Positions 7,592 to 39,988 of a stretch of 64,000 bases of DNA are shown here, piece after piece. The position numbers and the translations under genes were made by a program. The DNA lies in NCBI GenBank assembly GCA_963702005.1, contig OY969696.1:448001-512000 (forward strand). The letters run 5' to 3'. How positions within the stretch are numbered: the stretch's first letter is position 1; each line of letters opens with the position of its first letter. The notes under the pieces were generated by a model. It made no database searches. It had not been told where the DNA came from and worked only from the letters and a program-made list of their open reading frames with translations. The DNA comes from Candidatus Aminicenantes bacterium (GTDB lineage Bacteria > Acidobacteriota > Aminicenantia > Aminicenantales > JAFGBC01).

Positions 7592-7812
7592 GTCAACCCT
7601 TCGACACCCATACTAAGCCGTTTCCGGCTTAGTATGAGTACCGCAAGGCTGGGCTTGCTCAGGGTTAACCCTGAGCCTACTCAGCCCCATTCCTCCTAAA
7701 AGGGCTGAGTACAAAAGTGTCGCTTCTCGTCCCTGCCTTTCAGGGCGGCACACACGAACCGTTCCCGGTTCGTGAGTACTGCAAGGCTGGGTAGCGTCGG
7801 CGAACGGGTCAA
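7592..7812 (+). repeat. Modular palindromic element, copy A
   Basis: GTCAACCCTTCGAC...GCTCAGGGTTAACCCTGAGC...AGCGTCGGCGAACGGGTCAA. Shares long blocks with 27780-27933 (inverted) and 39730-39988. Confidence 0.9.
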
Positions 7813-8652: not shown

Positions 8653-9960
8653 ATGAGAAATGTCATCATCATGGGCGCGGCCGGACGGGATTTTCACAAT
8701 TTCAACGTCTACTACCGGACGAACCAAAACTACAGGGTTGTCGCTTTCACTGCCACTCAGATCCCGGATATCGCGGGCCGGAAGTACCCGGCCGAGCTGG
8801 CCGGCCCTCTCTACCCCGAGGGCATCCCGATCTACGCCGAAACCGAGCTTCCCGAACTTATCAAAACCCTCGGCGCCCAGGACGTCGTCTTCGCCTACAG
8901 CGACGTTCGCCATGAATACGTCATGCACCAGGCCTCCCTGGTCCATGCCTGCGGGGCGAGCTTCGTCCTGCTCGGCCCGGACGACACCATGATCAAGAGC
9001 CGGAAGCCGGTCATCTCCGTCTGCGCCGTCCGGACCGGGTCCGGCAAGAGCCAGACCAGCCGTAAAATCACCCTCCTTCTCAAAGAGGCCGGGAAGAAAG
9101 TCGCCGTCATCCGCCACCCGATGCCCTACGGCGACCTCGTCAAGCAGAAAGTCCAGCGCTTCGCGACCTACGAGGACATGGACCGTTACGAGTGCACGAT
9201 CGAAGAGCGCGAGGAATACGAGCCCCATATCCGGAACGGAATCATCGTCTTCGCCGGCGTCGACTACCAGGCCATCCTGGACGAGGCCGAGAAAGAGGCC
9301 GACGTTATCCTCTGGGACGGCGGAAACAACGACTTCCCGTTCTACAAGGCCGACCTCGAGATCGTGGTCGCCGACCCCCATCGGGCCGGCCACGAAATGC
9401 TCTACCACCCCGGCGAGACCAACCTGCGCCGAGCCCACGTCATCGTCGTCAACAAAATCGACACGGCCGATAAAGACAAGATCAAAATCGTTTTAGACAA
9501 CATCAAGAAGGTCAACCCCAAGGCCGTCATCATCAAGGCCAAATCCCCGATCTTCGTCAGCGACGGCAAGGCCATTCGGGGCAAGACGGTTCTCGTCATC
9601 GAGGACGGGCCGACCCTGACCCACGGCGAGATGCGCTACGGAGCCGGCATCGTGGCCGCCAAGAAATACGGCGCCCGCCGGATCGTCGACCCCCGCCCCT
9701 ACGCGGTCGGGACCATTAAAAAGACCTTCCAGAAGTACAGTCACCTCGACAAGGTCCTTCCGGCCATGGGCTACGGCGACGTCCAAATCGCCGAGCTGGC
9801 CAAGACGATCGACCGCGTTCCCTGCGACCTCGTCATCAGCGCGACCCCGATCGACCTCAGCCGGGTCCTGACGACCAAGAAGCGTCTCCTCCCCGTCCGC
9901 TACGAGCTGGCCGAGTCCGGCCCGATCACCCTCAAGAAGGTCCTCCAGAAATTCTTATGA
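8653..9960 (+). CDS. arcE: P-loop NTPase of the cDPGS-like family, probable arginine synthetase (ArcE-type)
   Basis: N-terminal MGAAGRDFHNFN, Walker A RTGSGKS, EEREEYEPH, WDGGNND and EDGPTLTHG motifs. Coupled (ATGA) to carbamate kinase and followed by OTC. Confidence 0.75.
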   Translation: MRNVIIMGAAGRDFHNFNVYYRTNQNYRVVAFTATQIPDIAGRKYPAELAGPLYPEGIPIYAETELPELIKTLGAQDVVFAYSDVRHEYVMHQASLVHACGASFVLLGPDDTMIKSRKPVISVCAVRTGSGKSQTSRKITLLLKEAGKKVAVIRHPMPYGDLVKQKVQRFATYEDMDRYECTIEEREEYEPHIRNGIIVFAGVDYQAILDEAEKEADVILWDGGNNDFPFYKADLEIVVADPHRAGHEMLYHPGETNLRRAHVIVVNKIDTADKDKIKIVLDNIKKVNPKAVIIKAKSPIFVSDGKAIRGKTVLVIEDGPTLTHGEMRYGAGIVAAKKYGARRIVDPRPYAVGTIKKTFQKYSHLDKVLPAMGYGDVQIAELAKTIDRVPCDLVISATPIDLSRVLTTKKRLLPVRYELAESGPITLKKVLQKFL

Positions 9961-10907
9961 AGAGACGCCTGGCCCTGATCGCCTTCGGCGGCAACGCCCT
10001 CCTCCCCGAGAGCCAACGCGGGCTCCAGGAGGAGCAGATGAGGAACGCCCAGACGGCGGCCCAGCTCATGGTCCATATCGTTAAGAAGGGCTATGAGCTC
10101 ATCATCGTCCACGGGAACGGCCCCCAGGTCGGGAACATCCTCATCCAGATGGAGGAGGCGGTCACCAAGATTCCGCCCTTCTCACTCGAGACCTGCGACG
10201 CCATGACCGAAGGAAGCATGGGCTACATGCTCGAGAAAGCCATCATCAACGAACTCCGCAGGAATTCGATCGACAAGGAAGTCGCGACCTTGATCAGCCA
10301 GGTCGTCGTCGACCCCAACGACGCGGCCTTTCAGAATCCGACCAAGCCGGTCGGACCCTTCTACACCAAATACCGGGCCCAAATGCTGGTCCGGGAGAAG
10401 AAGTGGACCATGGTCGAGGACGCCGGCCGGGGCTACCGAAAGGTCGTCCCCTCGCCCAAGCCGATCGACGTCGTCCCCAAGTGGATCATCCGCGACCTCG
10501 TCCGGGACGGGAAGATCGTCATCGCCGCCGGCGGGGGCGGGATTCCCGTCATCATCACCAGCCGCGGATTGTTTCAGGGCGTCGAGGCCGTCATCGACAA
10601 GGATTACGCGGCCAGCCTGTTGGCCCGCGAGGTCGGGGTCGACCTTTTCATCATCCTGACCGGGACCGACCGGGTCTACCTCAACTTCGGCAAGCCCGAC
10701 CAGAAGGAGTGCCCCGTCTTGACCGTCGACGAGGCCGAGCAGCATCTTAAGCAGGGCCAGTTCCCGGCTGGCTCGATGGGGCCCAAGATCCGGGCGGCCA
10801 TCGAATACATCCGGAACGGCGGCCGGGAGGTTCTGATCACGAGCGCCGCCAACCTCAAAGCGGCCCTTCTCAACCGCTCCGGGACAAAAATCGTCGCGTC
10901 GACCTGA
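9957..10907 (+). CDS. arcC: Carbamate kinase
   Basis: GGNAL, HGNGPQVG, PTKPVGPFY, GGGGIPV, EAVIDKD and GSMGPK motifs. Confidence 0.97.
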   Translation: MKRRLALIAFGGNALLPESQRGLQEEQMRNAQTAAQLMVHIVKKGYELIIVHGNGPQVGNILIQMEEAVTKIPPFSLETCDAMTEGSMGYMLEKAIINELRRNSIDKEVATLISQVVVDPNDAAFQNPTKPVGPFYTKYRAQMLVREKKWTMVEDAGRGYRKVVPSPKPIDVVPKWIIRDLVRDGKIVIAAGGGGIPVIITSRGLFQGVEAVIDKDYAASLLAREVGVDLFIILTGTDRVYLNFGKPDQKECPVLTVDEAEQHLKQGQFPAGSMGPKIRAAIEYIRNGGREVLITSAANLKAALLNRSGTKIVAST

Positions 10908-10924
10908 GACCGGAGAAAAGGATT

Positions 10925-11860
10925 ATGCGGAAAGACTTCATATCGATCCACGACCTGAGCCTCTACGAGTTCACCAAGCTTATGGACCTGGCCAAGGAAG
11001 TCAAAGCCAAGCCGGACCGTTTCCACAAGAAACTCAAAGGCAAGATCCTGGCCATGATTTTCCAGAAGCCCTCCCTGCGGACGCGGATGACCTTCGAGGT
11101 CGGCATGCTTCAGCTGGGCGGCGAAGCCATCTACCTGGCCCCCTCGGACATCCAGCTCGGGAGCCGGGAAAGCGTCTACGACGTCGGCAAGAACCTCGAA
11201 CGCTGGGTCGACGGAATCATGATTCGGGCCTTCGCCCACCAGAATGTCATCGACTTGGCCGCGAGCTGCCGGATTCCGGTCATCAACGGACTGACCGACC
11301 TTCTCCACCCCTGCCAGGCCTTGGCCGACTTCCAGACCCTCTATGAAAATAACCGGAACCTGAAGTCTTTCAAGCTGACATACGTCGGGGACGGGAACAA
11401 CGTCTGCCACAGCCTCATGTTCGCGGCGGCCAAAGCCGGGGCCACGATGGCGGTCGCCACCCCCCCCGGCTATGAGCCCAACCCGGAGATCGTCAAGCTG
11501 GCCGCCGAAGACGGCCGCGAGACGGGCTACGCCTTGACCTTGACCCACGATCCGGCCGAGGCCGTGTCCGGCGCCGACGCCGTCTACACGGACGTCTGGG
11601 CTTCGATGGGCCAGGAGGCCGAGAAGGAGAAACGGGCGAAGCTCTTCGCACCCTTGCAGGTCAACGCCCGCTTGATGGCCCGGGCCAAACCCGAGGCCTT
11701 CTTCATGCACTGCCTCCCCGCCCACCGGGAGGAGGAGGTCAGCGGCGAAGTCCTCGATTCGCCGCGTTCGATCGTCTATGACCAGGCCGAAAACCGCCTT
11801 CATGCCCAGAAGGCCATTATGTTAACATTGATGGGAGATAGCAAAGATCACGATGAGTAG
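10925..11860 (+). CDS. arcB: Ornithine carbamoyltransferase (likely catabolic, from context)
   Basis: PSLRT, HPCQ, DVWASMG, HCLP and QAENR motifs. Confidence 0.93.
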   Translation: MRKDFISIHDLSLYEFTKLMDLAKEVKAKPDRFHKKLKGKILAMIFQKPSLRTRMTFEVGMLQLGGEAIYLAPSDIQLGSRESVYDVGKNLERWVDGIMIRAFAHQNVIDLAASCRIPVINGLTDLLHPCQALADFQTLYENNRNLKSFKLTYVGDGNNVCHSLMFAAAKAGATMAVATPPGYEPNPEIVKLAAEDGRETGYALTLTHDPAEAVSGADAVYTDVWASMGQEAEKEKRAKLFAPLQVNARLMARAKPEAFFMHCLPAHREEEVSGEVLDSPRSIVYDQAENRLHAQKAIMLTLMGDSKDHDE

Positions 11861-13955
11861 CGAAGACAGGACGACGGCCGTCGACGAACAGGACCTCGCC
11901 TTCATCGAGGGCCTGTTCGCCCGGACCTCCCGCCCGCTTGCGGCCCGCGAGCTGGCTCAGAAGCTCGCCTTCGAAAAGACGGCCAGCCAACGGACCCAGG
12001 ATGTCAAGGTCTATGATTCGGCCTGCGTCTATGAGGTCGGCGACCAGGTCTACAAGGAATACGACGAAGCCCTGATGGTCTCGAGCAAGGTCGTCGAGCA
12101 CTTCAAGGGCGCCATCGTCCTTCGCGTCATCGCCAAGACTTTCTTCAAGGCCTACAGCTGCGAGATGATCGAAGTCGACTACGCCGGGGGCGGCCTCTTC
12201 CGGAAGTACATCGACTACATGAAGAAGACCAAGACCCAGGTTCTGCTCCCCGCCAACACGAGCGGCCAGGGCCAGTCCGCGCCGTTCATGGCCAAGGATA
12301 ACGACCCCCGGCTGACCGAACTCCCGATGACGGACCGGGATCTTAGAGCCTTGGAGAAAAACCTCCGGACAGCGTTGGCCAAATCCTCCAAGTTCTTCAG
12401 CTGGAACGACACCTGGCAGCTGGCTACGGCCAGGATCGAAATCCCCGAGGACAAGATCAAGGCCATGGAGAACGCCCTGCGCGAGAAACGGGCGTCGGCG
12501 GCAACCGAGGAGCTCGTCCGCGAGGTGTTCGGGATCGAAACATCGAATGACCAGTTCGACCTCTACTGCTTGAGCCTCAACCACGCCCTGGGCAAAAAGT
12601 ACAAGAAGGAATTTCTCTATGTCTCCCCGCTCGGCTGGGGCAAGTGGCTCATCAAGAGCGTCATCGCCTCCCTCCCCAAGGGCCTGTCCCTGGCGGCCCC
12701 CCTGGCGCCCCTCCCCGAGATCAACGAGACGGCCCTTCCCCCGGCGCCGCCGGCTTCTTTCCCGCTCAAGATCTACCTGGGCTGGCGCGAGATACTTTCG
12801 GGCGGCATCAAGATTCCCCGGAGCCTCAACAAGGAGTTGTCCCACGCCCAGGAATATCTCTTCACCGTCGCCGAGGAAAATAAAACCTACACCGTCTACT
12901 ATTACCCCGGGGAAGGATACTTCCTGGGGCTCAAGGATTACTTCCTCGAGAACAACGTCCCCCAGGGAACCTGCCTGACCCTCGAACGAAAAAGCCCGAT
13001 CCAATTCCACTTCTGGCTTAAGAAAGAGAAGAAGAAGCTCGAGGTCGTCCGGTTGAGCTACGACGCCGACCAGGACCGTTTCAAGGACGAAGGCGAGGTT
13101 GTCTTCACCTATTTTCTTCCCAACAAAAGCATCTACCTGGACAGGGAAAACCTGACCAAGCTTCTCGCTCTCTATCCCCAGCGAGAGGGCCTCGACCTCA
13201 AGGCCCTGCTCATTCTCGTTTTCAAAGCGCTCGGCCAGGAAGGCGGGACCTACTCTCTTCATTACCTGAGGGCTTACCATCTCAGCGATGTCCTCAAGCA
13301 CACGACCCAGGAGGACGTCGAACGGGTCCTGTCCGCTTCTCCGGAATTTACCATGTCGGACAAGAAGAAGGGGATCTTCTTCTACTACGAGGCCCGGCCC
13401 GCCCTCGAGGCGGCCGCCGTCGAGGCATCCCCGGCGCCGGCGTCCGAATATCCCTCCGAGGCCCTCGAGATCGGGCTCGGCCCCGAATCGTTCCCGGATG
13501 AAGAGGCCGCCGGACTCGAGATCGGCATCGCCGGCGAAGAAGAGGAGCTCATCCCCCTGGCGCCTCCTCCGGCTCCGGCTCCGGTCGCGGCCCCGCTCGA
13601 AAAGCCGAAGGCCGAACCTCGGCCCGAGTCCAAGAAAGAGAAGGCCGCCAAGAAAAAGAAGGTCAAGCCCGAGGGCGACAAGGCTCCGCGCCTTCGCAAG
13701 AGCGAGCGGAAGGTCATCGAGGAGCGGATCGAGATCGAGGAGTCCGCCCAGGAAGCCTTGACCGCCAGGAAAGCGGTCGAGGACGAGGAGGGCGCGGTTC
13801 CCGCGACCCTTGCCGCCAAGAAGGACAAAGAAGACCTCAAGATCGCCGAGACGCCCGCCGAAAAGCCCGCCTTCGGGTTCTTCGCCGAAAAACTCAAATC
13901 GGCCCTGTCCAAGAAAAAAGACGAGCCGAAGGAAGAGGACAAGAAAGGGACCTGA
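11853..13955 (+). CDS. Hypothetical 700-aa protein with predicted winged-helix repeats, a B3-like segment and an acidic/Lys-rich disordered tail
   Basis: Long ORF with genome-typical codon usage that overlaps the arcB stop. No family recognised with confidence. Confidence 0.8.
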   Translation: MSSEDRTTAVDEQDLAFIEGLFARTSRPLAARELAQKLAFEKTASQRTQDVKVYDSACVYEVGDQVYKEYDEALMVSSKVVEHFKGAIVLRVIAKTFFKAYSCEMIEVDYAGGGLFRKYIDYMKKTKTQVLLPANTSGQGQSAPFMAKDNDPRLTELPMTDRDLRALEKNLRTALAKSSKFFSWNDTWQLATARIEIPEDKIKAMENALREKRASAATEELVREVFGIETSNDQFDLYCLSLNHALGKKYKKEFLYVSPLGWGKWLIKSVIASLPKGLSLAAPLAPLPEINETALPPAPPASFPLKIYLGWREILSGGIKIPRSLNKELSHAQEYLFTVAEENKTYTVYYYPGEGYFLGLKDYFLENNVPQGTCLTLERKSPIQFHFWLKKEKKKLEVVRLSYDADQDRFKDEGEVVFTYFLPNKSIYLDRENLTKLLALYPQREGLDLKALLILVFKALGQEGGTYSLHYLRAYHLSDVLKHTTQEDVERVLSASPEFTMSDKKKGIFFYYEARPALEAAAVEASPAPASEYPSEALEIGLGPESFPDEEAAGLEIGIAGEEEELIPLAPPPAPAPVAAPLEKPKAEPRPESKKEKAAKKKKVKPEGDKAPRLRKSERKVIEERIEIEESAQEALTARKAVEDEEGAVPATLAAKKDKEDLKIAETPAEKPAFGFFAEKLKSALSKKKDEPKEEDKKGT

Positions 13956-13979
13956 TCCCTTCGATCCGGCCCGGAGATC

Positions 13980-15065
13980 TCAGAGGATTTCGCGGACGGG
14001 TCCCTTGCGCCTGGTGACGCCCATCCCGTCCAGAAGCTCGAGAAGGGGAATCGCGTACTTCCTGGTCAGCCCCGTCATCCGCTTGAAATCGCCCACGGAT
14101 AGCTCCCGCTTCTTGGATCGCTTGAGCTTGTCGACGATGTCCTCCAGCCAGCGCGAATGGAGGTAGAATCCATCCTGGCCTTGGACGATGCGCTTCCGTT
14201 CGACCAGGATGTCGAGGAGTTTCTGGAGCTTGGCCGGCGTCAGCCGGAAGCGGGCCCTGATTTCATCGAGAGAAACGGAATAGAACTCGCCCTTGAGGCA
14301 CATGGCCTCGAGCTCGGCCAGGATCGTTTCCTCTTGGGTCGATACGGGAGGACGGAACGCCGCGAGGCGGTACAAGCCCTGCTCCTCGACGACATCCCCC
14401 GATTTCTGCAGGGCCTTGAGCGTCAGGACAAGGACCTTGTCCGGGATCCGGAACCGTTTCCGCAAGGACGGAGTGCCGATCCCGCCCAGGTCGGGATGCT
14501 TCTCATGGTTCTTAGCCAGCACGCCCAGGATCTTTCGGCCGAGCAGGTCGAGGCTATCCCGCGCGACGAGGACCAGCGGAGAGAAGGACAGAATCTTGAC
14601 CTTGCCCTGGGCTTCGAGCTCGGGACTCAGCCGTTCGAGGCGCCCGGGCTTGAGGCCGGCCAACTCGCTGAGCTCGTCTTCCCGGATCCCCTGGACGCCC
14701 CTCTCCAAAGCGAACGCCTGGACCATGTCCCCCTCGCCGCCGAGGAGCTTTTCGAGGAGGCCGCTCCGGCGGGCCATCCGGACCTGACCCAGCTTCGGGG
14801 CCTGCGGATGGAGGATTCGGCCGCGGCCGATCGAGCCCCCGCCGCGCTGGGCGGCGAGTTCGAACCCGTCCTTCCAACGGACATCGGCCGGGACGGAGAG
14901 CTCGGCCCGGGCCAGGACGGGACCGCTCGGACTCCCCTTGCTCGGGGGATAATAGACGAGCCGGGCCTGGACCCTGGTCGCGCCGGCGGCGAGGATGACT
15001 TCTTGGGGAAGCGTTTTAAGTTCAGCGGCGAACTCGAGGGCGACATCCATGCGATTCGACATCAT
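13980..15065 (-). CDS. SelB C-terminal-like protein (domain III plus winged-helix domain IV), no GTPase domain
   Basis: C-terminal FKRMTGLTRKYAIPLLELLDGMGVTRR matches SelB WH4. The N-terminus resembles domain III (..IGRGRILHP). ATGA overlap with the rnr stop and AGGAGG upstream. No P-loop. Confidence 0.8.
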   Translation of the reverse strand: MMSNRMDVALEFAAELKTLPQEVILAAGATRVQARLVYYPPSKGSPSGPVLARAELSVPADVRWKDGFELAAQRGGGSIGRGRILHPQAPKLGQVRMARRSGLLEKLLGGEGDMVQAFALERGVQGIREDELSELAGLKPGRLERLSPELEAQGKVKILSFSPLVLVARDSLDLLGRKILGVLAKNHEKHPDLGGIGTPSLRKRFRIPDKVLVLTLKALQKSGDVVEEQGLYRLAAFRPPVSTQEETILAELEAMCLKGEFYSVSLDEIRARFRLTPAKLQKLLDILVERKRIVQGQDGFYLHSRWLEDIVDKLKRSKKRELSVGDFKRMTGLTRKYAIPLLELLDGMGVTRRKGPVREIL

Positions 15066-17158
15066 CGGGGGAGGCCCTCCTTGGCCTTCAGGACGAGCTG
15101 AATTCTCCTCAGGACGGAATCGACGGCGACGACGAGGACCCGGACTCTGTCGCCGAGCCGGAAGACGCGCCGGTTCCTCTTCCCCACCAGCCGTGTCTCG
15201 GACTGGCGGATATAATAATCCCCGTCCAGGTCGGGGTAGGCCACCAGACCTTCCACGAAATAATCGGTCAAGGCCACGACGAGCCCGGCCTTGTTCATGT
15301 CGACGATCAGCCCCTCCGTCTCCTCCCCGAGCTTGCCCTTGAGGAAGCGAAAGATGCGCCATTCGACGAGGTCCCGCTCGGCCTCGTCGGCCCGCCGCTC
15401 CCGGTCTGAGCAGTGGACGGCCAGACCGGCCAGGTCGGCCGCTTTTCGCTTCTCGCCGGCCAGGACCCGGCGCAGGACCCGGTGGACGACGAGGTCCGGA
15501 TAGCGCCGGATGGGCGATGTAAAATGCGCATAGTTCGTCTTGGCCAGGCCGAAGTGCCCGCTGTTGGCGGCGCTGTAAACGGCCAGCTTCAGGGCGCGCA
15601 GGACGAGAAAGTGAATGACCTTGGCTTCGGGCCGCCGTTCGGCCTCCCGCAGGACCTTCTGGATGTCCTTGACGACCACCTTGGCGGGCGGGGGAAGTTC
15701 CAGCCCGAACGACTGGAGGATCTCGCGGAGCTTCTCGAGGTCGGCCCGGGCCGGCGGCGGATGGACGCGGTAGAGCGATGGAGCGCCCTGGCCCGAAACG
15801 AAAGCGGCGACGGCTTCGTTGGCGGCGACCATAAGGTCTTCGATGAGCTCATGGGCCTCATTGCGCTCCGCGGAGGCGACGGCGGCGAGCTTTCCTTCGC
15901 TGTAGATGAGCTCGGGCTCGAGCAGGTCGAAGTCCAAACTCCCTTCGTCGAGGCGCCGCTTCCTGATCGCTTGAGCGGCCTCCCGGAGGCGGAAGAGATG
16001 GGGGACGAGAGGACTATAGCGGCGACGTTCGTCGCCGTCGCCCTCGAGAATCCGGAATACCGACGTGTAGGTCATCCGGGCCTCGGTCCGGATGAAGGAC
16101 GGCTTGAAGTCGGCGCGCCGGACCTCCCCCCGGCCGTCCAATTCGAGCAGAACCGAGAAGGCGAGCCGGGGACGATTCGGCCTCAGGCTGCAGATGTCGT
16201 TGGACAGCCTCTCGGGAAGCATGGGCAGGGTCCGTCCCGGAAGGTAGACGCTCGTCGCCCGCTCGCGCGCAACCCGGTCGAGCGCGGTCCCGGGCCGGAC
16301 GTAGTGGCCCACGTCGGCGATGTGGACCCCGACGAGAAGGCGGCCGTTCCCCAGCTCCTTGGCCGAAACGGCGTCGTCGAAATCCTGGGCGGTCTCTCCG
16401 TCGATGGTTACCGTCGGCCAGGTCGTGAAATCCTCCCGGCCCAGCGTGTCCTCGGGAACGCGGACGTCGGAAACGGCGGCGGCTTCCTCGACGGCGTCGC
16501 CGGGGAACTCGGACGGAAGGTCGTATTTACGGAGGACGGTTTCGATGTCCACCCCGGGAGCCTCGGGGTCGCCCAGAACTCGGGCAAGGCTCATCCGGTC
16601 CCGGTCGACTTCAACGATCATGCCCGGCGCCGGGGCCAGCCCTTCCCGGGAGGTGATGGGCAAGTCGTCCTGGGAGGGCTCGTCGAAGGGCTGGAAGAAG
16701 GGTTGTCCCAAGCGCTCTTTGTAAACGCCGATCCGGCGGCTCCCGGCCTTGCGCAGGATCCGGACGATCCGTCCCTTGGGTTTACCTTTCCTCCCCTTTT
16801 CGGTCGACAGCACCTCGACCGTATCCCCCCGCAGGGCCCCGGCCCGGAAACGGGCCGGGATGAAGACATCCTCGACGTTCGGGGCCGGGGTGACGTCTTC
16901 ATCCCGGCCCCGAACGTCGAGGACGACGAAGCCGTAGCCGCCGGCGGCCGGGACGAAAACTCCCGCTTCGACCTGAGAGCGGGGCGGCGTCGCGTAGCCG
17001 TCCTTAATACGTTGAACAAGGCCCTCGGCCTCGAGCTCCTTGAGGGCCTTGGCCAGCCGCGTCCTGTCCGCCGCCCGGAGGCCGAGCTCGCGGGCGAGCT
17101 TGGGCAGGCTCATCCGCTCTTTTTTATCGGCCAGGAGTTTCAGGATTCGGTCTTTCAT
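15062..17158 (-). CDS. rnr: Ribonuclease R
   Basis: N-terminal HTH/CSD, TIDGETAQDFDDA, LPMLPERLS, HFTSPIRRYPDL and C-terminal S1. Confidence 0.96.
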   Translation of the reverse strand: MKDRILKLLADKKERMSLPKLARELGLRAADRTRLAKALKELEAEGLVQRIKDGYATPPRSQVEAGVFVPAAGGYGFVVLDVRGRDEDVTPAPNVEDVFIPARFRAGALRGDTVEVLSTEKGRKGKPKGRIVRILRKAGSRRIGVYKERLGQPFFQPFDEPSQDDLPITSREGLAPAPGMIVEVDRDRMSLARVLGDPEAPGVDIETVLRKYDLPSEFPGDAVEEAAAVSDVRVPEDTLGREDFTTWPTVTIDGETAQDFDDAVSAKELGNGRLLVGVHIADVGHYVRPGTALDRVARERATSVYLPGRTLPMLPERLSNDICSLRPNRPRLAFSVLLELDGRGEVRRADFKPSFIRTEARMTYTSVFRILEGDGDERRRYSPLVPHLFRLREAAQAIRKRRLDEGSLDFDLLEPELIYSEGKLAAVASAERNEAHELIEDLMVAANEAVAAFVSGQGAPSLYRVHPPPARADLEKLREILQSFGLELPPPAKVVVKDIQKVLREAERRPEAKVIHFLVLRALKLAVYSAANSGHFGLAKTNYAHFTSPIRRYPDLVVHRVLRRVLAGEKRKAADLAGLAVHCSDRERRADEAERDLVEWRIFRFLKGKLGEETEGLIVDMNKAGLVVALTDYFVEGLVAYPDLDGDYYIRQSETRLVGKRNRRVFRLGDRVRVLVVAVDSVLRRIQLVLKAKEGLPR

Positions 17159-17173
17159 GGAGAAGGAGGGTCG

Positions 17174-17815
17174 TCAATAATAATAAAAGGAGAAATAGGG
17201 GATCTTGTACTTCTCCCGGAGATGCTTGATGAGTTTGATGTGAAAGATGCGGAGGATTTCCTCCGGACCTCGGCCCGGATAGTCCTTGGCGGCCGCCTCG
17301 CGCAGGGAGATCTTATCGTCCTGGCTGCAGTGGCGGAGAAGAAGCTCATCCACCCTCTCGTCGAGCTCTTCAAACAGGACATCCCCGGTCTCGCGGTTTG
17401 CGAGCAGCTCCTGAGCGCGGCGGTAAATCCCCTCCAGGTAGGGGACGGCGGGCGGAAGGGCGTCCAGGAAATGCGTGACCTCGGCGTAGACCCGATCCCT
17501 CGGGTCTTCGCGGAGCGCGGCTTTCCGGGTCCGGCTCTTGCCGACCCGGCGCTCCCGACAAAGCTCGAAGCTCTTTTTGACCGAGGAGTTGCAGGCGTTT
17601 AAGGTCTGGATCTTCTTGCGGACCTGGCCCCGACCCGGTTCGAAGGCCTTCTCGATGCCCTCCAAAACAACCGGAAGGGGAATCCGAAGCCGCTCCCAAT
17701 CGGCGATGAGGGCGAGATCCTGGGGCGATAGAAAGAAGGGGGCGCCCCGTCTGGCCAGGAATGCCCGCGCGATGCCCCTGTAGTATCCGCTCCGCCCGCT
17801 CTGTTCGCCGTCCAT
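17174..17815 (-). CDS. Hypothetical protein, N-terminus resembles a DnaD/DnaB_2-like helical domain
   Basis: ATG at 17815 after a G-rich SD. LSPQDLALIADW...IPLPVVLEGIEKAF pattern. Confidence 0.65.
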   Translation of the reverse strand: MDGEQSGRSGYYRGIARAFLARRGAPFFLSPQDLALIADWERLRIPLPVVLEGIEKAFEPGRGQVRKKIQTLNACNSSVKKSFELCRERRVGKSRTRKAALREDPRDRVYAEVTHFLDALPPAVPYLEGIYRRAQELLANRETGDVLFEELDERVDELLLRHCSQDDKISLREAAAKDYPGRGPEEILRIFHIKLIKHLREKYKIPYFSFYYY

Positions 17816-17825
17816 CTCTCCCCCC

Positions 17826-18599
17826 TCAGGACCGGTTCCTGTCATGGATGATCCGGAGCCCTTCCAGGACGAGGTCCGGCTCCAGGGCATCGATCGCCGG
17901 GAGCTCGGGCGCGATCTGGGCCGCGAATCCGCCCGTGGCGACGACCTTGACATTCGGCTCGTCGCCGAGCTCCCGCTTGATTTCCGAAATGATGTTGCCG
18001 ACAAGGCCGACATAGCCGAAATAGAGGCCGGATTGCATGCTGGCGACGGTCGTCTTTCCGATCGCGCGGGCCGGCTTGCGGATTTCGATCCGGGGGAGCC
18101 TGGCCGTTTTCAGATACAAAGCCTCGGCCGAGATCTGGATCCCGGGCGCGATCGCCCCGCCCAAATATTCTCCGCGGGCCGAAACGGCGTCGAATGTCGT
18201 GGCGGTACCGAAATCGACGACGATGCACGGCCCGCCGTATTTTTCAAAGGCCGCCACGGAAGCAACGACCCGGTCTGCTCCCACTTCGAGCGGATTCTCA
18301 TAGAGGATGGGCATGCTCGTCTTGAGCCCGGGCCCGACGACGAGGGCCCGGGTCTGGAACAGGTCTTGGCTCAAGGATTGGAAGACCGGCGTCAAGGGTG
18401 GAACGACCGAGGAGACGATGACGGCCGTCACGGCCGTGGACTCGAACTCGGCGAAGCGGAGGGCGTTCCGGATATCGAGGCTGTACTCATCGCAGGTCTT
18501 TTCCCGCTCGGTCCGAAACCGCCAAGTCCGGCGCAGGATTTTCCCCTCGAAGAGACCGACGGCTACGGTCGTGTTGCCGATATCAATGGCCAGCAGCAT
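17826..18599 (-). CDS. coaX: Type III pantothenate kinase
   Basis: LLAIDIGNT, SSVVP, VGADR, VDFGTATT and GGAIAPG motifs. Confidence 0.96.
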   Translation of the reverse strand: MLLAIDIGNTTVAVGLFEGKILRRTWRFRTEREKTCDEYSLDIRNALRFAEFESTAVTAVIVSSVVPPLTPVFQSLSQDLFQTRALVVGPGLKTSMPILYENPLEVGADRVVASVAAFEKYGGPCIVVDFGTATTFDAVSARGEYLGGAIAPGIQISAEALYLKTARLPRIEIRKPARAIGKTTVASMQSGLYFGYVGLVGNIISEIKRELGDEPNVKVVATGGFAAQIAPELPAIDALEPDLVLEGLRIIHDRNRS

Positions 18600-18618
18600 G
18601 GATTCCTCCGTTATAGCT

Positions 18619-19371
18619 TCAGCCGGCGTCCTCCAGGGAAACCGTATCCGCCGAGAAGAACACCGCCCGGCCCTCCGGGAGGTCGAGGACGAGACCGCCC
18701 CGATCGTCGAAACCGGCCCAGCGTCCCCGGACCACGCCGCCGTCATTGCGGCGCAGGGTCAAAACGGCCGCCGGAGCGAAGGATGCCGCGTCCCGGTAAG
18801 CGTCGAGGATGTCGCGGACCCGGCTCTCCCGAAAAGCGCCGTACCAGCGCTCGAGGCCGTCATACAGCCGGGAGAGAAGTCGTTGCTCATTCCCATCCCA
18901 ACCGCCCGCCATATGTAAGGATGCCGCTGTGGCGCGAAAGTCCTCGGGAAAATCCCGCTCTTCATGGGTCAGGTTGAGGCCGACTCCCAGGACGGCGAAC
19001 CGATTCGGGCCGTCTCCGCCGCGGGCTTCGCACAAAATCCCTCCGAGTTTTCGCTTGTTCCAGATGAGGTCGTTGGGCCACTTCAGGGCGACCGGCACGG
19101 CGGAGGCTTCGATGATCCCCTCCCGGACGCCGAGCCCGGCGGCCAACGGTAAAAGGGAAAGGTCCGCCGAGAGCGGCCTGAGGATGACGGATAAGTACAA
19201 ACCCATGTCCGCCGGCGAATGCCAGCTCCGGCCCTTGGTGCCGCGGCCCCGGGTCTGGGTCCGGGCGGTCACGACCGTCCCCTCCTCCACGCCGGACAAC
19301 GCCAAATCCTTGGCCAGATCGTTGGTGGACCCGCAGGATTGATGCGCGTGCACTTTGGCCCCGATCCTCAT
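18619..19371 (-). CDS. birA: Biotin--[acetyl-CoA-carboxylase] ligase (no HTH)
   Basis: STND, QTRGRG, KWPND and KLGGIL motifs. Confidence 0.94.
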   Translation of the reverse strand: MRIGAKVHAHQSCGSTNDLAKDLALSGVEEGTVVTARTQTRGRGTKGRSWHSPADMGLYLSVILRPLSADLSLLPLAAGLGVREGIIEASAVPVALKWPNDLIWNKRKLGGILCEARGGDGPNRFAVLGVGLNLTHEERDFPEDFRATAASLHMAGGWDGNEQRLLSRLYDGLERWYGAFRESRVRDILDAYRDAASFAPAAVLTLRRNDGGVVRGRWAGFDDRGGLVLDLPEGRAVFFSADTVSLEDAG

Positions 19372-19393
19372 TCTTACCCTCGGCGCCGGACGC

Positions 19394-19990
19394 TCAGGAC
19401 CGGCGCCCGTCCCCCTGCGGCTTCTCCATCCACTCTTTAACCACGGCCAGGATCCGGGTCCTGATCCGCTTTTCCAGCTCCCGTTCGACGGCCAGGATCT
19501 CCTCCCGAACGGCCGCCCTCATGACTTCGGGCAGGACCCGCCCGGTCCCGGAAGGGGGCTTGGGTTTCTCGACGACGATCTCCTCCAAGGTCGCCTCCTC
19601 GGGGAAGGACAAGGGGCCCTTTTTTCTGTCCACGGCGTCCTTGACCGCCCGGACTAGGCTCTCCGAATCGAAGGGTTTGACGACGAGCCCGTCGAAACGG
19701 ATGCCGCCAAGCCGATCCTCATTCAAGGGCTCGAAAACCCCCCTGATCAGGAACAAGGCCATCTGCCCGAACTCGTCCTGGCCCGACAAGGCCCGGCCAA
19801 TGTCGTAGCCGCAGCCCCCAGGCAGGGACAGGCTGAGCAGGAGAGCGTCCGGCCGCTCCCTGCCCAGAAGCTCTTGGAGGTCCCGCCCGTCCGACACGGA
19901 GCTGAGCTCGAACTCGGCGGGGGGAAAAGCCAGCTGGACGGCCTTCTGGATGGAAGGCGAGCCGTCGGCAAGAACCAGCTTGTAGGCCAT
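19394..19990 (-). CDS. RomR-like response regulator with degenerate receiver domain
   Basis: Receiver fold (LVLADGS, RPDALLLS..LPG, GVFEP, KPFDS) with Ser at the phospho-acceptor position, followed by a linker and a C-terminal amphipathic helix. Confidence 0.75.
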   Translation of the reverse strand: MAYKLVLADGSPSIQKAVQLAFPPAEFELSSVSDGRDLQELLGRERPDALLLSLSLPGGCGYDIGRALSGQDEFGQMALFLIRGVFEPLNEDRLGGIRFDGLVVKPFDSESLVRAVKDAVDRKKGPLSFPEEATLEEIVVEKPKPPSGTGRVLPEVMRAAVREEILAVERELEKRIRTRILAVVKEWMEKPQGDGRRS

Positions 19991-20081
19991 AGAAACGACC
20001 GGAACCTCCGGAATGTCAAATCTTCCTTAGCATTTTTGCGCGGCCGATGTCAAGGCGTGCGAGGGGTCCGAGGGGAGAGAA

Positions 20082-23000
20082 TCAAGCGTAGTCGATGACG
20101 ACCGAGTTCTCGCCCAGGAGATCTTCCACCAGGCGGACGAGCTCGTCGGAGGGGGAGACGGACTGAACCTCGACCGAGCGGACGACGATTTTATAAGCGC
20201 GGGGTATCTCGAGCTCGAAATAGACCGGGCAGCCGCCCGGGTGGGCGTTCAGGAGCCCGTGAAGCTCGCGGACCAAGGATTCCTCCAGGCCGGGCAGGAA
20301 GACCTTGAGGACGAGCCGCTTGGCCTGTTTGAGGAAGGCGTCCTCGAGCAGCATGATCTGGGATAAAATGATTTTGCGGTTCTCCCCGTCGACCTGGAAG
20401 CGGCCCTTGATCCAGACCAGGGCGCCTTCGCGGAGGAGTTCGAAGTAGCGTTTGTAGGCGTCCGGGAAAGCGACGACGTCGAGCCGGCCGGTCAGGTCCT
20501 CAAGAGACAGGACGGCCATCCGCTCGTCCTTCTTGGTCTTAGTCGGCTTGACGGCGGCAACGATCCCGGCAACCTTGACCTCGGTGTTGGAGTCCCTCTC
20601 GTCATCCAGGTCGCTCAGGAAATGGGAGATGAGGCGCTTGATCCGCTTCTCGTACTGGGTCAGCGGATGGCCGGTGATGTAGAAACCCAGGACGTCCTTC
20701 TCGTAGGACAGGAAGTGGGGCTCGTCCCATTCGCTCATGCCCCGGACCTCCTCGGGGACGTCGGGCCCGTTTTTCTCCCCGGCGCCGAACAAGAGAGACT
20801 GCCGGGTCGCCAGGACTTTCTGGAGGCCGTGGGCGTAGTCGATCATCTCATCGAGGAGATGGAAGAGCTGAGACCGCTTCCAGCCCAGCGAATCAAAAGC
20901 GCCGGCCTTGATCAGGCTCTCGACGACCTTGCGGTTGAGGACTTGGGGCTCGGTCTCCTCGAAGATCTCGAACGGGGTCCGGAAGCGTCCCTTCTTGTCG
21001 CGGGCCCGCAGGATGGCCAGGACGGCCGCCTCGCCCACGTTTTTGAGGGCGCCGAGTCCGAAGCGGATCGCCCCGCGCGAAACCGTGAAGCTCAGGCCGC
21101 TTTCATTGATGTCAGGCGGCAGGACCTTGATCCCCATCGCCTGGCACTCGTTGATGTACTTCCAGAGCTGCTGGGTGTCGCCCCGCTCGGCTTCCGACGT
21201 CAGGAGAGCGGCCAGGAAATGGACGGGGTAGTGGGCCTTGAGGTAGGCCGTCTGGTAGGCAAGGTAGGCGTAGGCGGCGCTGTGGGATTTATTGAATCCG
21301 TACTCGGCGAAGTGGCGGATCTGGTCGAAGATCTTGCTCGCCCGGCCCTTGGTCAGGCCCTTCTTCTGGGCGCCCTGGATGAAGCGCAGCTTCTGCTCCT
21401 CCATGATCTCGGCGACCTTCTTGCCCATGGCCTTGCGGAGGAGGTCGGCCTCGGCCAGGCTGAACCCGGCCAGCTCGGTCGCGATCTTCATGACCTGTTC
21501 CTGGTAGACGATGATTCCGCGCGTTTCCTTGAGGAGGGGTTCGAACTCGGGGAACTCGACGGTCGCCTGCTCGGGGTGGCGCTTGCGCTTGATGAACTGG
21601 TCGGTCATCCCGCTCTTGAGCGGGCCGGGCCGGTAGAGGGCGTTCATGGCGATCAGGTCGCGGAAGGTCTCCGGCCCGTAAGAGCGCAGCAGGTCCTTCA
21701 TGCCGTGGCTTTCAAACTGGAAGACGCCGTCCGTGTTCCCCGTCTGGAAAAGCCGGAAGGTCTCCGGGTCGTCGGGGGGAATGGCTTCGAGGTCGATCCG
21801 CTCGCCCGTCTCCTTCTCGACGAGCTCGATCGTGTCCCGGATCACCGTCAAGTTCCGAAGGCCGAGGAGGTCCATCTTGAGGAGCCCGATGGCTTCGATG
21901 TCGCCCATCGGAAACTGGGTCGTGATTTCGCCCTTGACGGACTGGTAGAGGGGCATGTACTCGACCAGGGGCTTGGGGGTGATGACGATCCCGGCGGCGT
22001 GGATGGAGGGATGGCGGACCTGGCCCTCGAGCTTCTCGGCGATGGTCAGGAGTTGGGCGATCTTGGCGTTTCCGGTCCGGAGCTCGCGCAGGGCGGGGAT
22101 GTTCTTGAGGGCTTCGGCGATCGTCGAATCCGGGCCGAACGGGATCATCTTGGCGATCCGGTCGACTTCGGGGAGCGGGACCTCGAGCGCCCGGCCCACG
22201 TCCCGGATGGCGCCGCGGGCGGCCATCGTCCCGAAGGTGATGATCTGGCAGACGTTTTCCTGGCCGTACTTCTGGGTCACGTAGGACAGGACCTCGCCCC
22301 GCCTCCGGCCGCAGAAGTCGATGTCGATGTCGGGGAGGCTGATCCGCTCCGGGTTCAGGAAGCGTTCGAAAAGGAGGTCGAACTCGATGGGGTCGATCTC
22401 GGTGATGCCCAAGCTCCAGGAGACGATGCTCCCAGCCGCCGAGCCGCGGCCCGGCCCGACCGGGATCCCTTTCTCGCGGGCGGCCCGGATGAGGTCCCAG
22501 ACGATGAGGAAGTAGCCCTCGAACTTCATGGACTGGATGAGCTTGATCTCGCGCTCGAGCCGCTGCTCGTACTCCTCAAGGGAATGGCCGGCCTCGCCCT
22601 TGCGCCGCCGCTCTTCAACCCCGGACATCCGCTCGGCGAAACCCTGCCGGGCGATTTGGGCGAAGTAGTCCGAGAGGTCCGCGCCGTCGGGCGGCTTGAA
22701 GTGGGGGAGGAAGTAGCCCGAGGACGGGAAGCGGAACTCGCACTGGGCGGCGATATGGAGCGTGTTGTGGAGGGCGTCGGGGACGTCGCCAAACAGGGTC
22801 TCCATCTCTTCGCCGGACTTAAAATAGAACTCGGTCGAACCGAACCGGATCCGGTCCTGGTCGGTGACCTTCTTGTTCGTCTGGATGCAGAGAAGGACGT
22901 CGTGGCTCTCGGCATCCTCCTTGCGGAGGTAGTGGACGTCGTTGGTAGCGACCAGCGGGAGGCCGCTCTTGCCCGCCAGGCGGACCAGGCCAGCGTTGAC

Positions 23001-39734: not shown

Positions 39735-39988
39735 ACCCTAAGCAAGCCCCAATCCAAGGGCTTGTAAGGAGCGGAAGCTTCTCAGAATCATTCTCATTGT
39801 AGGCGTTTGAGCGCCCGTACTCATGAGACGTTTCCGGCTCATGAGTATTGACCCTGAGCCCACTCAGCCCCATTCCTTCTAAAAGGGCTGAGTACAAAAG
39901 TGTCGCTTCTCATCCCCGGCTTGAAAGGCGGCACTCATGGAAGCCATGGGTACTGCAAGGCGGCGCCTAGCGTCGGCGAACGGGTCAA
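39730..39988 (+). repeat. Modular palindromic element, copy C
   Basis: GTCAAACCCT...ACCCTGAGCCCACTCAGCCCCATTCCTTCTAAAAGGGCTGAGTACAAAAGTGTCGCTTCTC...AGCGTCGGCGAACGGGTCAA, largely shared with copy A. Confidence 0.88.

Follow-up and report, generated by a model that had tools for sequence, protein, structure and literature searches.

A GTPase-less SelB paralogue encoded beside the RNase R gene in Aminicenantia, a candidate stand-alone RNA stem-loop-binding protein

A 64,000-nucleotide stretch of DNA from Candidatus Aminicenantes bacterium (GCA_963702005.1, contig OY969696.1, positions 448,001 to 512,000 of the forward strand; referred to as the window) carries on its minus strand, directly downstream of the RNase R gene rnr, a gene for a 361-amino acid (aa) GTPase-less paralogue of the selenocysteine (Sec)-specific elongation factor SelB, labeled SelBC in this analysis. 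From its homology, motif retention, and distribution, SelBC is proposed to be a Sec-independent, stand-alone RNA stem-loop-binding protein that is usually co-expressed with RNase R, a reading given a probability of about 0.5. The SelB winged-helix (WH) module is the textbook reader of mRNA hairpins on the ribosome and has so far been discussed solely within the Sec machinery; here it is encoded as an independent protein that is strongly constrained across the class and present in hundreds of species genomes, the majority of which lack a Sec system. A second, separate use for the recognition of Sec insertion sequence (SECIS)-type hairpins is implied because the module survives in Sec-negative genomes.

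Domain architecture and homology to SelB

The features of the gene and of its upstream neighbor, with the evidence for each in brackets, are:

13980..15065, minus strand: SelBC gene, GTPase-less SelB paralogue of 361 aa plus stop (open reading frame and translation, Pfam, hhalign, order-wide homologues)
14808..15059, minus strand: EF-Tu/SelB domain III-type beta-barrel, SelBC residues 3-86 (AlphaFold2, Foldseek, hhalign)
14364..14777, minus strand: WH1 and WH2, SelBC residues 97-234 (AlphaFold2, 1lva profile match, SelB-wing_2)
13986..14339, minus strand: WH3 and WH4, the module that binds the SECIS hairpin in SelB, SelBC residues 243-360, with motif TGLTRKYAIPLLELLDGMGVTRRKG (SelB-wing_3, Foldseek to 1wsu)
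15062..15065, minus strand: ATGA, overlap of the SelBC start and the rnr stop (sequence)
15076..15082, minus strand: AAGGAGG, Shine-Dalgarno-like, within the rnr coding sequence and 10 nt 5' of the SelBC ATG (sequence)
15062..17158, minus strand: rnr, RNase R of 698 aa, directly upstream of SelBC (TIGR02063 and Pfam)

The 361-aa open reading frame with its own ribosome-binding site and ATGA overlap, as described in an original prediction made from the sequence alone, was borne out, the SelBC ATG (15065-15063) overlapping the rnr TGA stop (15064-15062). Pfam placed SelB-wing_2 (PF09106) on residues 182-233 (30.4 bits, cut-off 22.3) and SelB-wing_3 (PF09107) on residues 318-358 (55.5 bits, cut-off 23.2), and the motif GLTRKYAIPLLELLDGMGVTRR was found in the translation, in agreement with the claim of an intact WH4 motif. 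The selB equivalog model TIGR00475 scored 33 bits versus a cut-off of 242.25, with model positions 514-575 alone matched. Profile-profile comparison by hhalign with full-length SelB from the same order (12 sequences) aligned SelBC residues 1-357 to SelB 265-628, comprising domain III (D3), the spacer, and WH1-4 (probability 99.5, E 7.6e-23). The GTPase domain (D1) with its G1-G5 motifs is absent as judged from TIGR00475, the start of the hhalign alignment at SelB 265, and the end of rnr at the start of the gene, while domain II (D2) is absent in that the AlphaFold2 model and hhalign give a single barrel (residues 3-86) aligning to D3. The predicted lack of both domains, and of room for them upstream where rnr ends at the SelBC start, was therefore correct.

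The AlphaFold2 model, built from an alignment of 27 family members (mean predicted local distance difference test score, pLDDT, of 87.3), contains a six-strand beta domain at residues 3-86 (strands E3-12 to E78-86) followed by winged helices at residues 97-168, 169-234, 243-303, and 304-360. The suggestion that D3 is degenerate held for its sequence, which is divergent and gave no Pfam match, but not for its fold, as the barrel has its six strands and was matched by Foldseek to domain 3 of eIF2-gamma (8phd_B, TMt 0.66) and of EF-Tu. The top Foldseek match for SelBC was SelB (5lzb_z, E 4.5e-16 over 367 columns) followed by 1lva and 4zu9, and the matches included isolated SelB C-terminal fragments with SECIS RNA (1wsu, 2ply, 2uwm, and 2pjp), WH3-4 superposing on the 1wsu complex of the SelB C-terminal domain and SECIS RNA with TMt 0.82-0.83 and a root-mean-square deviation of 2.5-2.6 Å over 120-121 columns. 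A match to M. thermoacetica SelB (fragment 1lva) was also obtained with the family profile and spans residues 113-358 (E 3e-30). Pfam, AlphaFold2, the profile match, Foldseek, and hhalign together place D3, four C-terminal winged helices, and the SECIS-type WH4 motif in SelBC.

The passages of PMC4605307 that treat these domains assign SECIS binding near the mRNA entrance to WHD3-4 of SelB and, in a model by its authors, a contact with 16S h16 to WHD1-2; tRNA-Sec is contacted at its T and extra arms by D3, which is held rigidly together with the spacer and WHD1. A preprint describes WH3/4 in the same way (bioRxiv 10.1101/2025.02.04.636165). The SelBC breakpoint is a natural domain boundary since the alignment covers D3, the spacer, and WH1-4 as SelB units. 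As read from its predicted domains, SelBC is a protein that retains every RNA-facing part of SelB and none of the parts for GTP and the aminoacyl end. It resembles bacterial SelB over the whole SelBC length (SelB 265-628), in the four winged helices, and in the WH4 motif of the solved SECIS complexes, but differs in lacking D1 and D2, and hence GTP binding and Sec-tRNA binding or delivery, and in being a separate gene beside rnr that is present where selA and selB were not found.

Distribution, selection, and the selenocysteine system

SelBC was present in 41/41 genomes of the order (9 families and 23 genera; assemblies 69-97% complete), and this locus was thus not one at which the relatives have full-length selB and a single lineage a truncated copy. 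A protein search gave 442 matches among 7999 scored candidates, the best 120 of which were 297-379 aa long (118 fell within 356-370 aa), shared 40-86% identity with the query, and covered 82-100% of it. Relatives were encoded in 567 stretches of species-representative genomes, and 80 loci were kept for locus-level counts: these are Aminicenantes, Aminicenantia, or Saccharicenans records, Acidobacteria-labeled metagenome-assembled genomes (MAGs), and placeholder-named MAGs, and one gene order recurs wherever the flanking DNA is long enough. Related forms are spread across the class Aminicenantia. Almost all of the out-of-class matches listed from 301 Acidobacteriota genomes (a tally that includes the unpublished-flagged G192, G064, and G089, on which no individual claim depends) lay in 613-1308 aa frames, i.e., full-length SelB, with six listed matches in uninspected frames of <310 aa.

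NCBI names among the relatives were "SelB C-terminal domain-containing protein" and "hypothetical protein" (Aminicenantes, Aminicenantales, and Acidobacteriota), and what was already known is this generic name for a family whose individual members are uncharacterized. No description of SelBC was found in the literature searched, with subscription papers and supplements outside the search, and a term search of a 2026 selenoproteome review returned no passage on truncated SelB (PMC13188914). The JGI name was "selenocysteine-specific elongation factor," and such a label on SelBC leads to Sec users being miscounted, which calls for caution by annotators.

Compared with its closest relative (87% identical), SelBC had a ratio of non-synonymous to synonymous substitution rates (dN/dS) of 0.134 versus 0.141 for rnr, with the weakest constraint of the three parts tested in the barrel (0.27) and lower values in WH1-2 (0.12; residues 95-238) and WH3-4 (0.072; residues 239-361). 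The WH4 motif was near-invariant in two alignments of 27 and of 21 family members, and the invariant columns of the WH3-WH4 part fell mostly within WH4; WH1 was also strongly conserved, with consensus LEAEGKVRILSFSPLFL and invariant L150, E151, I158, L159, F161, and P163. Judged by these substitution patterns and its class-wide conservation, SelBC is under purifying selection and is not a local truncation, and the argument from the open frame against a decayed pseudogene held.

In the window's genome, a single cluster approximately 300 kb from SelBC holds selA (C1:765451-766824), a Cys-type selD, full-length selB (768099-769995) with its own D3 and WH1-4, and tRNA-Sec (770011-770106), so that the search for selA, selB, selC, and selD proposed with the original prediction found all four together. 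A TIGR00475 search of the genome found no orphan SelB G-domain (D1-D2) gene, the other N-terminal matches being in open frames of 409-1129 aa that we take, unchecked, to be general translation GTPases by their length. Across the order, selB was above cut-off in 17/41 genomes and selA in 18/41, and neither was found in 23/41, whereas SelBC was in all 41 and did not track selA, selD, or tRNA-Sec. Lone absences are weak evidence because of the incompleteness of the assemblies, but the concordant family-wide absences of selA and selB (0/6 in the family designated f6, 0/6 in f9, and 0/1 in f8) are not. On this distribution the function of SelBC is independent of Sec insertion, and SelBC probably has another RNA-related job because it is kept whether or not the organism uses Sec.

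The assembly's selB (G000:C1:768099-769995; L008:1477-3094) reads in two frames with a break near L008:1592, the part with the G1 motif (MAGLDKDHVIFGTAGHIDHGKS) lying in one frame and the rest in the +1 frame, with one surplus base in the GAAGAAGAAG run. The 126-letter contig from run X1 is without the surplus base and restores the frame, although it has three other differences and is not necessarily from the same strain; because of this contig the frameshift may reflect either an assembly error or strain variation. Read cover at the site was thin and mixed with GTPases of other organisms.

SelBC has the canonical WH4 motif RKYAIPLLE.LD..GVTRR shared with M. thermoacetica SelB and with SelB of other Acidobacteriota. 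The full-length SelB of the order has SRKYA[CQ]A[IVL]LEY.D instead, Ala replacing the Pro in 13/13 sequences (L138-L149 and the selB of G000). A maximum-likelihood tree built from 40 rows of the WH1-4 region placed the paralogues in one group (support 89/89) on a short stem of 0.29 beside the SelB of other Acidobacteriota, and the SelB of the order on a long stem of 1.72 (support 100/100); the order of events between SelB and SelBC is not settled by this tree as its deeper forks are weak (45/72) and its root is the midpoint. SelBC branches were shorter than those of the SelB C-terminal half in 3/3 sister-genome pairs. SelBC and the order's SelB may have split the hairpin space between them; alternatively, selB may have been replaced by transfer. 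SECIS recognition by the full-length SelB of this order may also deviate from the textbook case.

Eukaryotic SBP2 has an L7Ae-type fold, binds SECIS, and is required for Sec insertion. As predicted for SelBC, SECIS-type hairpin binding is here the task of a distinct protein and not of the elongation factor, but the fold of SBP2 is unrelated and it is needed for Sec insertion, while SelBC exists without the Sec system. The archaeal aSelBL proteins, in the passages that describe them, are like SelBC in being SelB-family paralogues in organisms without Sec use, but are without winged helices and have kept the GTPase core, which is the reverse of SelBC (PMC3037878; PMC4329189).

Linkage to rnr and the weighing of functions

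Under the proposed Sec-independent role, SelBC would have originated by duplication of the C-terminal part of SelB (D3, spacer, and WH1-4), with WH3-WH4 clamping an RNA hairpin at its apical part, in the manner of the SelB-SECIS structures, and WH1-WH2 adding RNA or ribosome contacts together with the barrel or with the basic tail that may replace it. Binding would be the whole of its activity because D1 and D2, and hence GTP binding and tRNA delivery, are lacking. More speculatively, SelBC could mark, hold, or shield certain structured RNAs, or hairpins located where mRNA enters the ribosome, and a setting of RNA turnover or translation quality control, with RNase R as the usual but not obligate collaborator, is suggested since SelBC is usually co-produced with RNase R from what is proposed to be the same transcript. 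SelBC is a concrete candidate partner or modulator of RNase R, and the family is tractable in being small, having a high-confidence predicted structure, and being makeable from synthetic genes.

The upstream gene was identified as RNase R by TIGR02063 (640.9 bits versus a cut-off of 597.85), and its product has RNB, CSD2, OB_RNB, and S1 domains in Pfam. By comparison of coordinates by eye, rnr lies directly upstream of SelBC on the same strand in 40/41 genomes of the order, and it does so in 79/79 loci that have upstream DNA (L059, which has none, was left out). Of these 79 loci, 38 have the genes overlapping by 4 nt, 19 have a gap of 0-30 nt, and 16 have one of 31-400 nt; in the remaining six the gap is >400 nt, with an inserted gene in three and a frameshifted rnr in three. 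The ATGA-type overlap in 38/79 loci suggests translational coupling.

That SelBC is an obligate cofactor which binds RNase R and recruits it to hairpin RNAs or ribosomes, or blocks it there, draws on this same adjacency and overlap and on the persistence of the association in the deeper families of the class that were sampled, as rnr-pgi-SelBC. It would also fit family f12, where RNase R is missing and SelBC sits on a very long branch (2.26 in the maximum-likelihood tree) in a different gene context; in the one f12 locus read, the frame lies between what is presumably a glycosyltransferase gene and two presumed peptidase genes, named by eye. E. coli RNase R reaches stalled ribosomes with help from a lysine-rich tail and tmRNA-SmpB, and the RNase R of the window lacks such a C-terminal basic tail as its S1 match stops at residue 689 of 698. 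An obligate partnership is nevertheless unlikely. Genome G007 (L105) has the order coaX-orf279-SelBC from which rnr has been cleanly deleted, and its assembly, which is 92% complete, contains no RNB domain at all, yet its SelBC is intact and typical (E 3.9e-140, branch 0.41). None of the nine f12 genomes had RNase R at E<=1e-100, and RNB domains were absent from four of the five tested, yet a 347-402 aa frame ending in a SelB-type WH3-4 or WH4 match was present in 9/9. The loss of the RNase R basic tail is unlinked to the presence of SelBC, the barrel was lost in families f3 and f9 without change in the RNase R model coverage, and a GTPase-less SelB of an unrelated low-GC lineage (374-376 aa) follows purM-glyQ-glyS and not rnr. 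Accordingly, of the earlier idea of a hairpin binder working with RNase R, the hairpin binder is well supported by homology and motif, but the RNase R part draws its evidence from gene order and is weakened because genomes without RNase R keep SelBC.

Two dependent ideas were rejected on the same material, namely SelBC as a substitute for the lost RNase R basic tail, since tails come and go without relation to SelBC among the 17 RNase R genes compared within the class and phylum, and a change in RNase R matching the barrel loss in f3 and f9, for which model coverage was unchanged. When RNase R (698 aa) and residues 95-361 of SelBC were entered as alignments for complex prediction, the score was 0.00 on both occasions and was counted neither way. 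The lack of RNase R in G007 and in the f12 genomes tested is unusual for bacteria in assemblies that are 92-97% complete.

Several observations weigh against the proposed role itself. Synteny across the class covers a block of approximately 9 kb, in which birA-coaX-orf-rnr-SelBC faces orf700-argF-arcC, and because the whole block is kept, the adjacency of rnr could be inherited inertia. A gene that we take from its sequence motifs to be that for glucose-6-phosphate isomerase (pgi) separates rnr and SelBC in the deeper families, as read directly in L091/G173 and G149 (one locus each for families f10 and f13) and inferred from a gap of approximately 1.3-1.4 kb for f11 and f15 (G067, G083, and G291). 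No RNA target came to light: an Rfam search of window positions 9000-22000 at E<=1 gave no match other than a chance miRNA-family match inside rnr, and the rnr/SelBC junction had no extra structure (mean z +0.31 versus internal rnr windows; 90-nt windows, n=39 loci); the convergent gene downstream ends only 24 nt from SelBC. RNA binding by WH3-WH4 would follow from homology and motif retention, and tandem winged helices are also present in DNA-binding and ribosome-binding proteins.

A bolder version of the proposed role, which appears rather unlikely, would have the mRNA-anchoring half of a recoding factor now serving as a cofactor of a new kind, for an exoribonuclease or for ribosome quality control. 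SelBC would clamp hairpins at the point of mRNA entry into the ribosome or 3' of it, where SelB holds SECIS, and would stop RNase R or hand the RNA over as the nuclease comes from the 3' side, while the order's SelB would have re-tuned its WH4 (Pro to Ala) after the duplication, thereby ending competition for hairpins.

It is quite improbable that SelBC has lost RNA-hairpin recognition and serves as a winged-helix DNA-binding regulator or as a protein- or ribosome-binding scaffold. The tandem winged helices do match UFL1, Pol III C34-type subunits, and TFIIIC (Foldseek E 1e-4 to 1e-3), and the conserved WH1 segment could be a protein interface; however, the best-conserved segment is the RNA-contact motif of SelB WH4 and, in the profile search and Foldseek, SelB structures lead all other fold matches by at least 10 orders of magnitude.

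In E. coli, Sec insertion is inhibited when SelB domain IV is over-produced, and a SECIS-like hairpin mediates the autoregulation of selAB by SelB. These precedents, the canonical SECIS-binding motif of SelBC, the use of Sec by the window's genome (selA, selD, selB, and tRNA-Sec), and the altered WH4 of the resident SelB, which could mean a partition of hairpin targets, would favor a competitor or regulator that, by binding SECIS or hairpins resembling it, adjusts selenoprotein synthesis or sel expression. Such a function is very improbable, with the sel cluster distant from SelBC and whole families Sec-negative, and the regulation of UGA recoding put forward in the original prediction cannot be the main role because the 23/41 relatives without selA and selB keep SelBC. 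The remaining suggestion, that SelBC is half of a split SelB or a decaying selB remnant, could point to the 1-nt frameshift after the G1 motif of the assembly's full-length selB but is refuted as extremely improbable, given that this selB has its own D3 and WH1-4 within the sel cluster and its frame is restored in the X1 contig, that the genome has no orphan D1-D2 gene, that 23/41 genomes have neither selA nor selB, and that SelBC is class-wide and under purifying selection.

Variant forms and neighboring features

Short forms of approximately 255-335 aa without the barrel were found in families f3 and f9 and in genus g20. A lysine/arginine-rich N-terminal tail takes the place of the barrel in 3/5 family f3 proteins read (L111, L154, and L158), where it is rich in lysine, arginine, and alanine (e.g., MPAPVKKKKLRATKRAARP), and its composition fits nucleic-acid binding. 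The family f10 form is 467-470 aa long in the arrangement rnr-pgi-SelBC (L131:605-2014, minus strand; L130:1387-2790, plus strand; L132:180-1580, minus strand), and the additional N-terminal 195-210 aa or so is predicted from four sequences to be all-beta, at low confidence (pLDDT 28-63 over residues 1-140). Single-sequence hhalign gave no alignment of this extension to SelB D2/D3, and the f10 form may be an intermediate in which D2 is retained. A divergent 347-aa form occurs in the two f12 genomes read.

Beyond the family, most 360-440 aa matches in a 50%-identity representative library were fragments of 636-649 aa SelB. Cluster P0193/P0277 was a genuine GTPase-less SelB of 374-376 aa from low-GC contigs of up to 637 kb, and it shares the truncated plan of SelBC, a D3-like region plus WH1-4. 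It differs in lineage, in its distant similarity (E 6e-37 to the SelBC family profile), and in its context, which at L159:5001-6131 (plus strand) consists of purM-glyQ-glyS upstream and a convergent Lon-type protease gene downstream, with no rnr.

The same-strand run birA-coaX-orf-rnr-SelBC includes, between coaX and rnr, an unknown-family gene placed by synteny:

17174..18013, minus strand: unknown-family orf between coaX and rnr (synteny)

Its product had no match in Pfam or NCBIfam and is 34-46% identical across the class and 90% identical in the nearest relative, L023. The orf is syntenic in most of the 80 loci, and orf279 still adjoins SelBC in G007, the genome without rnr. The convergent orf700 (window 11853-13955, plus strand) encodes a class-conserved protein of 700 aa with an N-terminal domain of approximately 510 aa and a lysine/glutamate-rich tail; it had no match in Pfam or NCBIfam, and ESM Atlas gave unnamed clusters alone (score 0.95). 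A scan of 13500-19800 gave no promoter-like sites and eight terminator-like sites versus 6.2 +/- 2.4 expected. A dispersed repeat of approximately 100 nt with two predicted hairpins occurs in the window at 7665-7754 and 39848-39937 (copies 89% identical), and with 64 blastn high-scoring segment pairs in the genome, 18 of them >=80 nt, it resembles a repetitive extragenic palindromic (REP) or miniature inverted-repeat transposable element (MITE).

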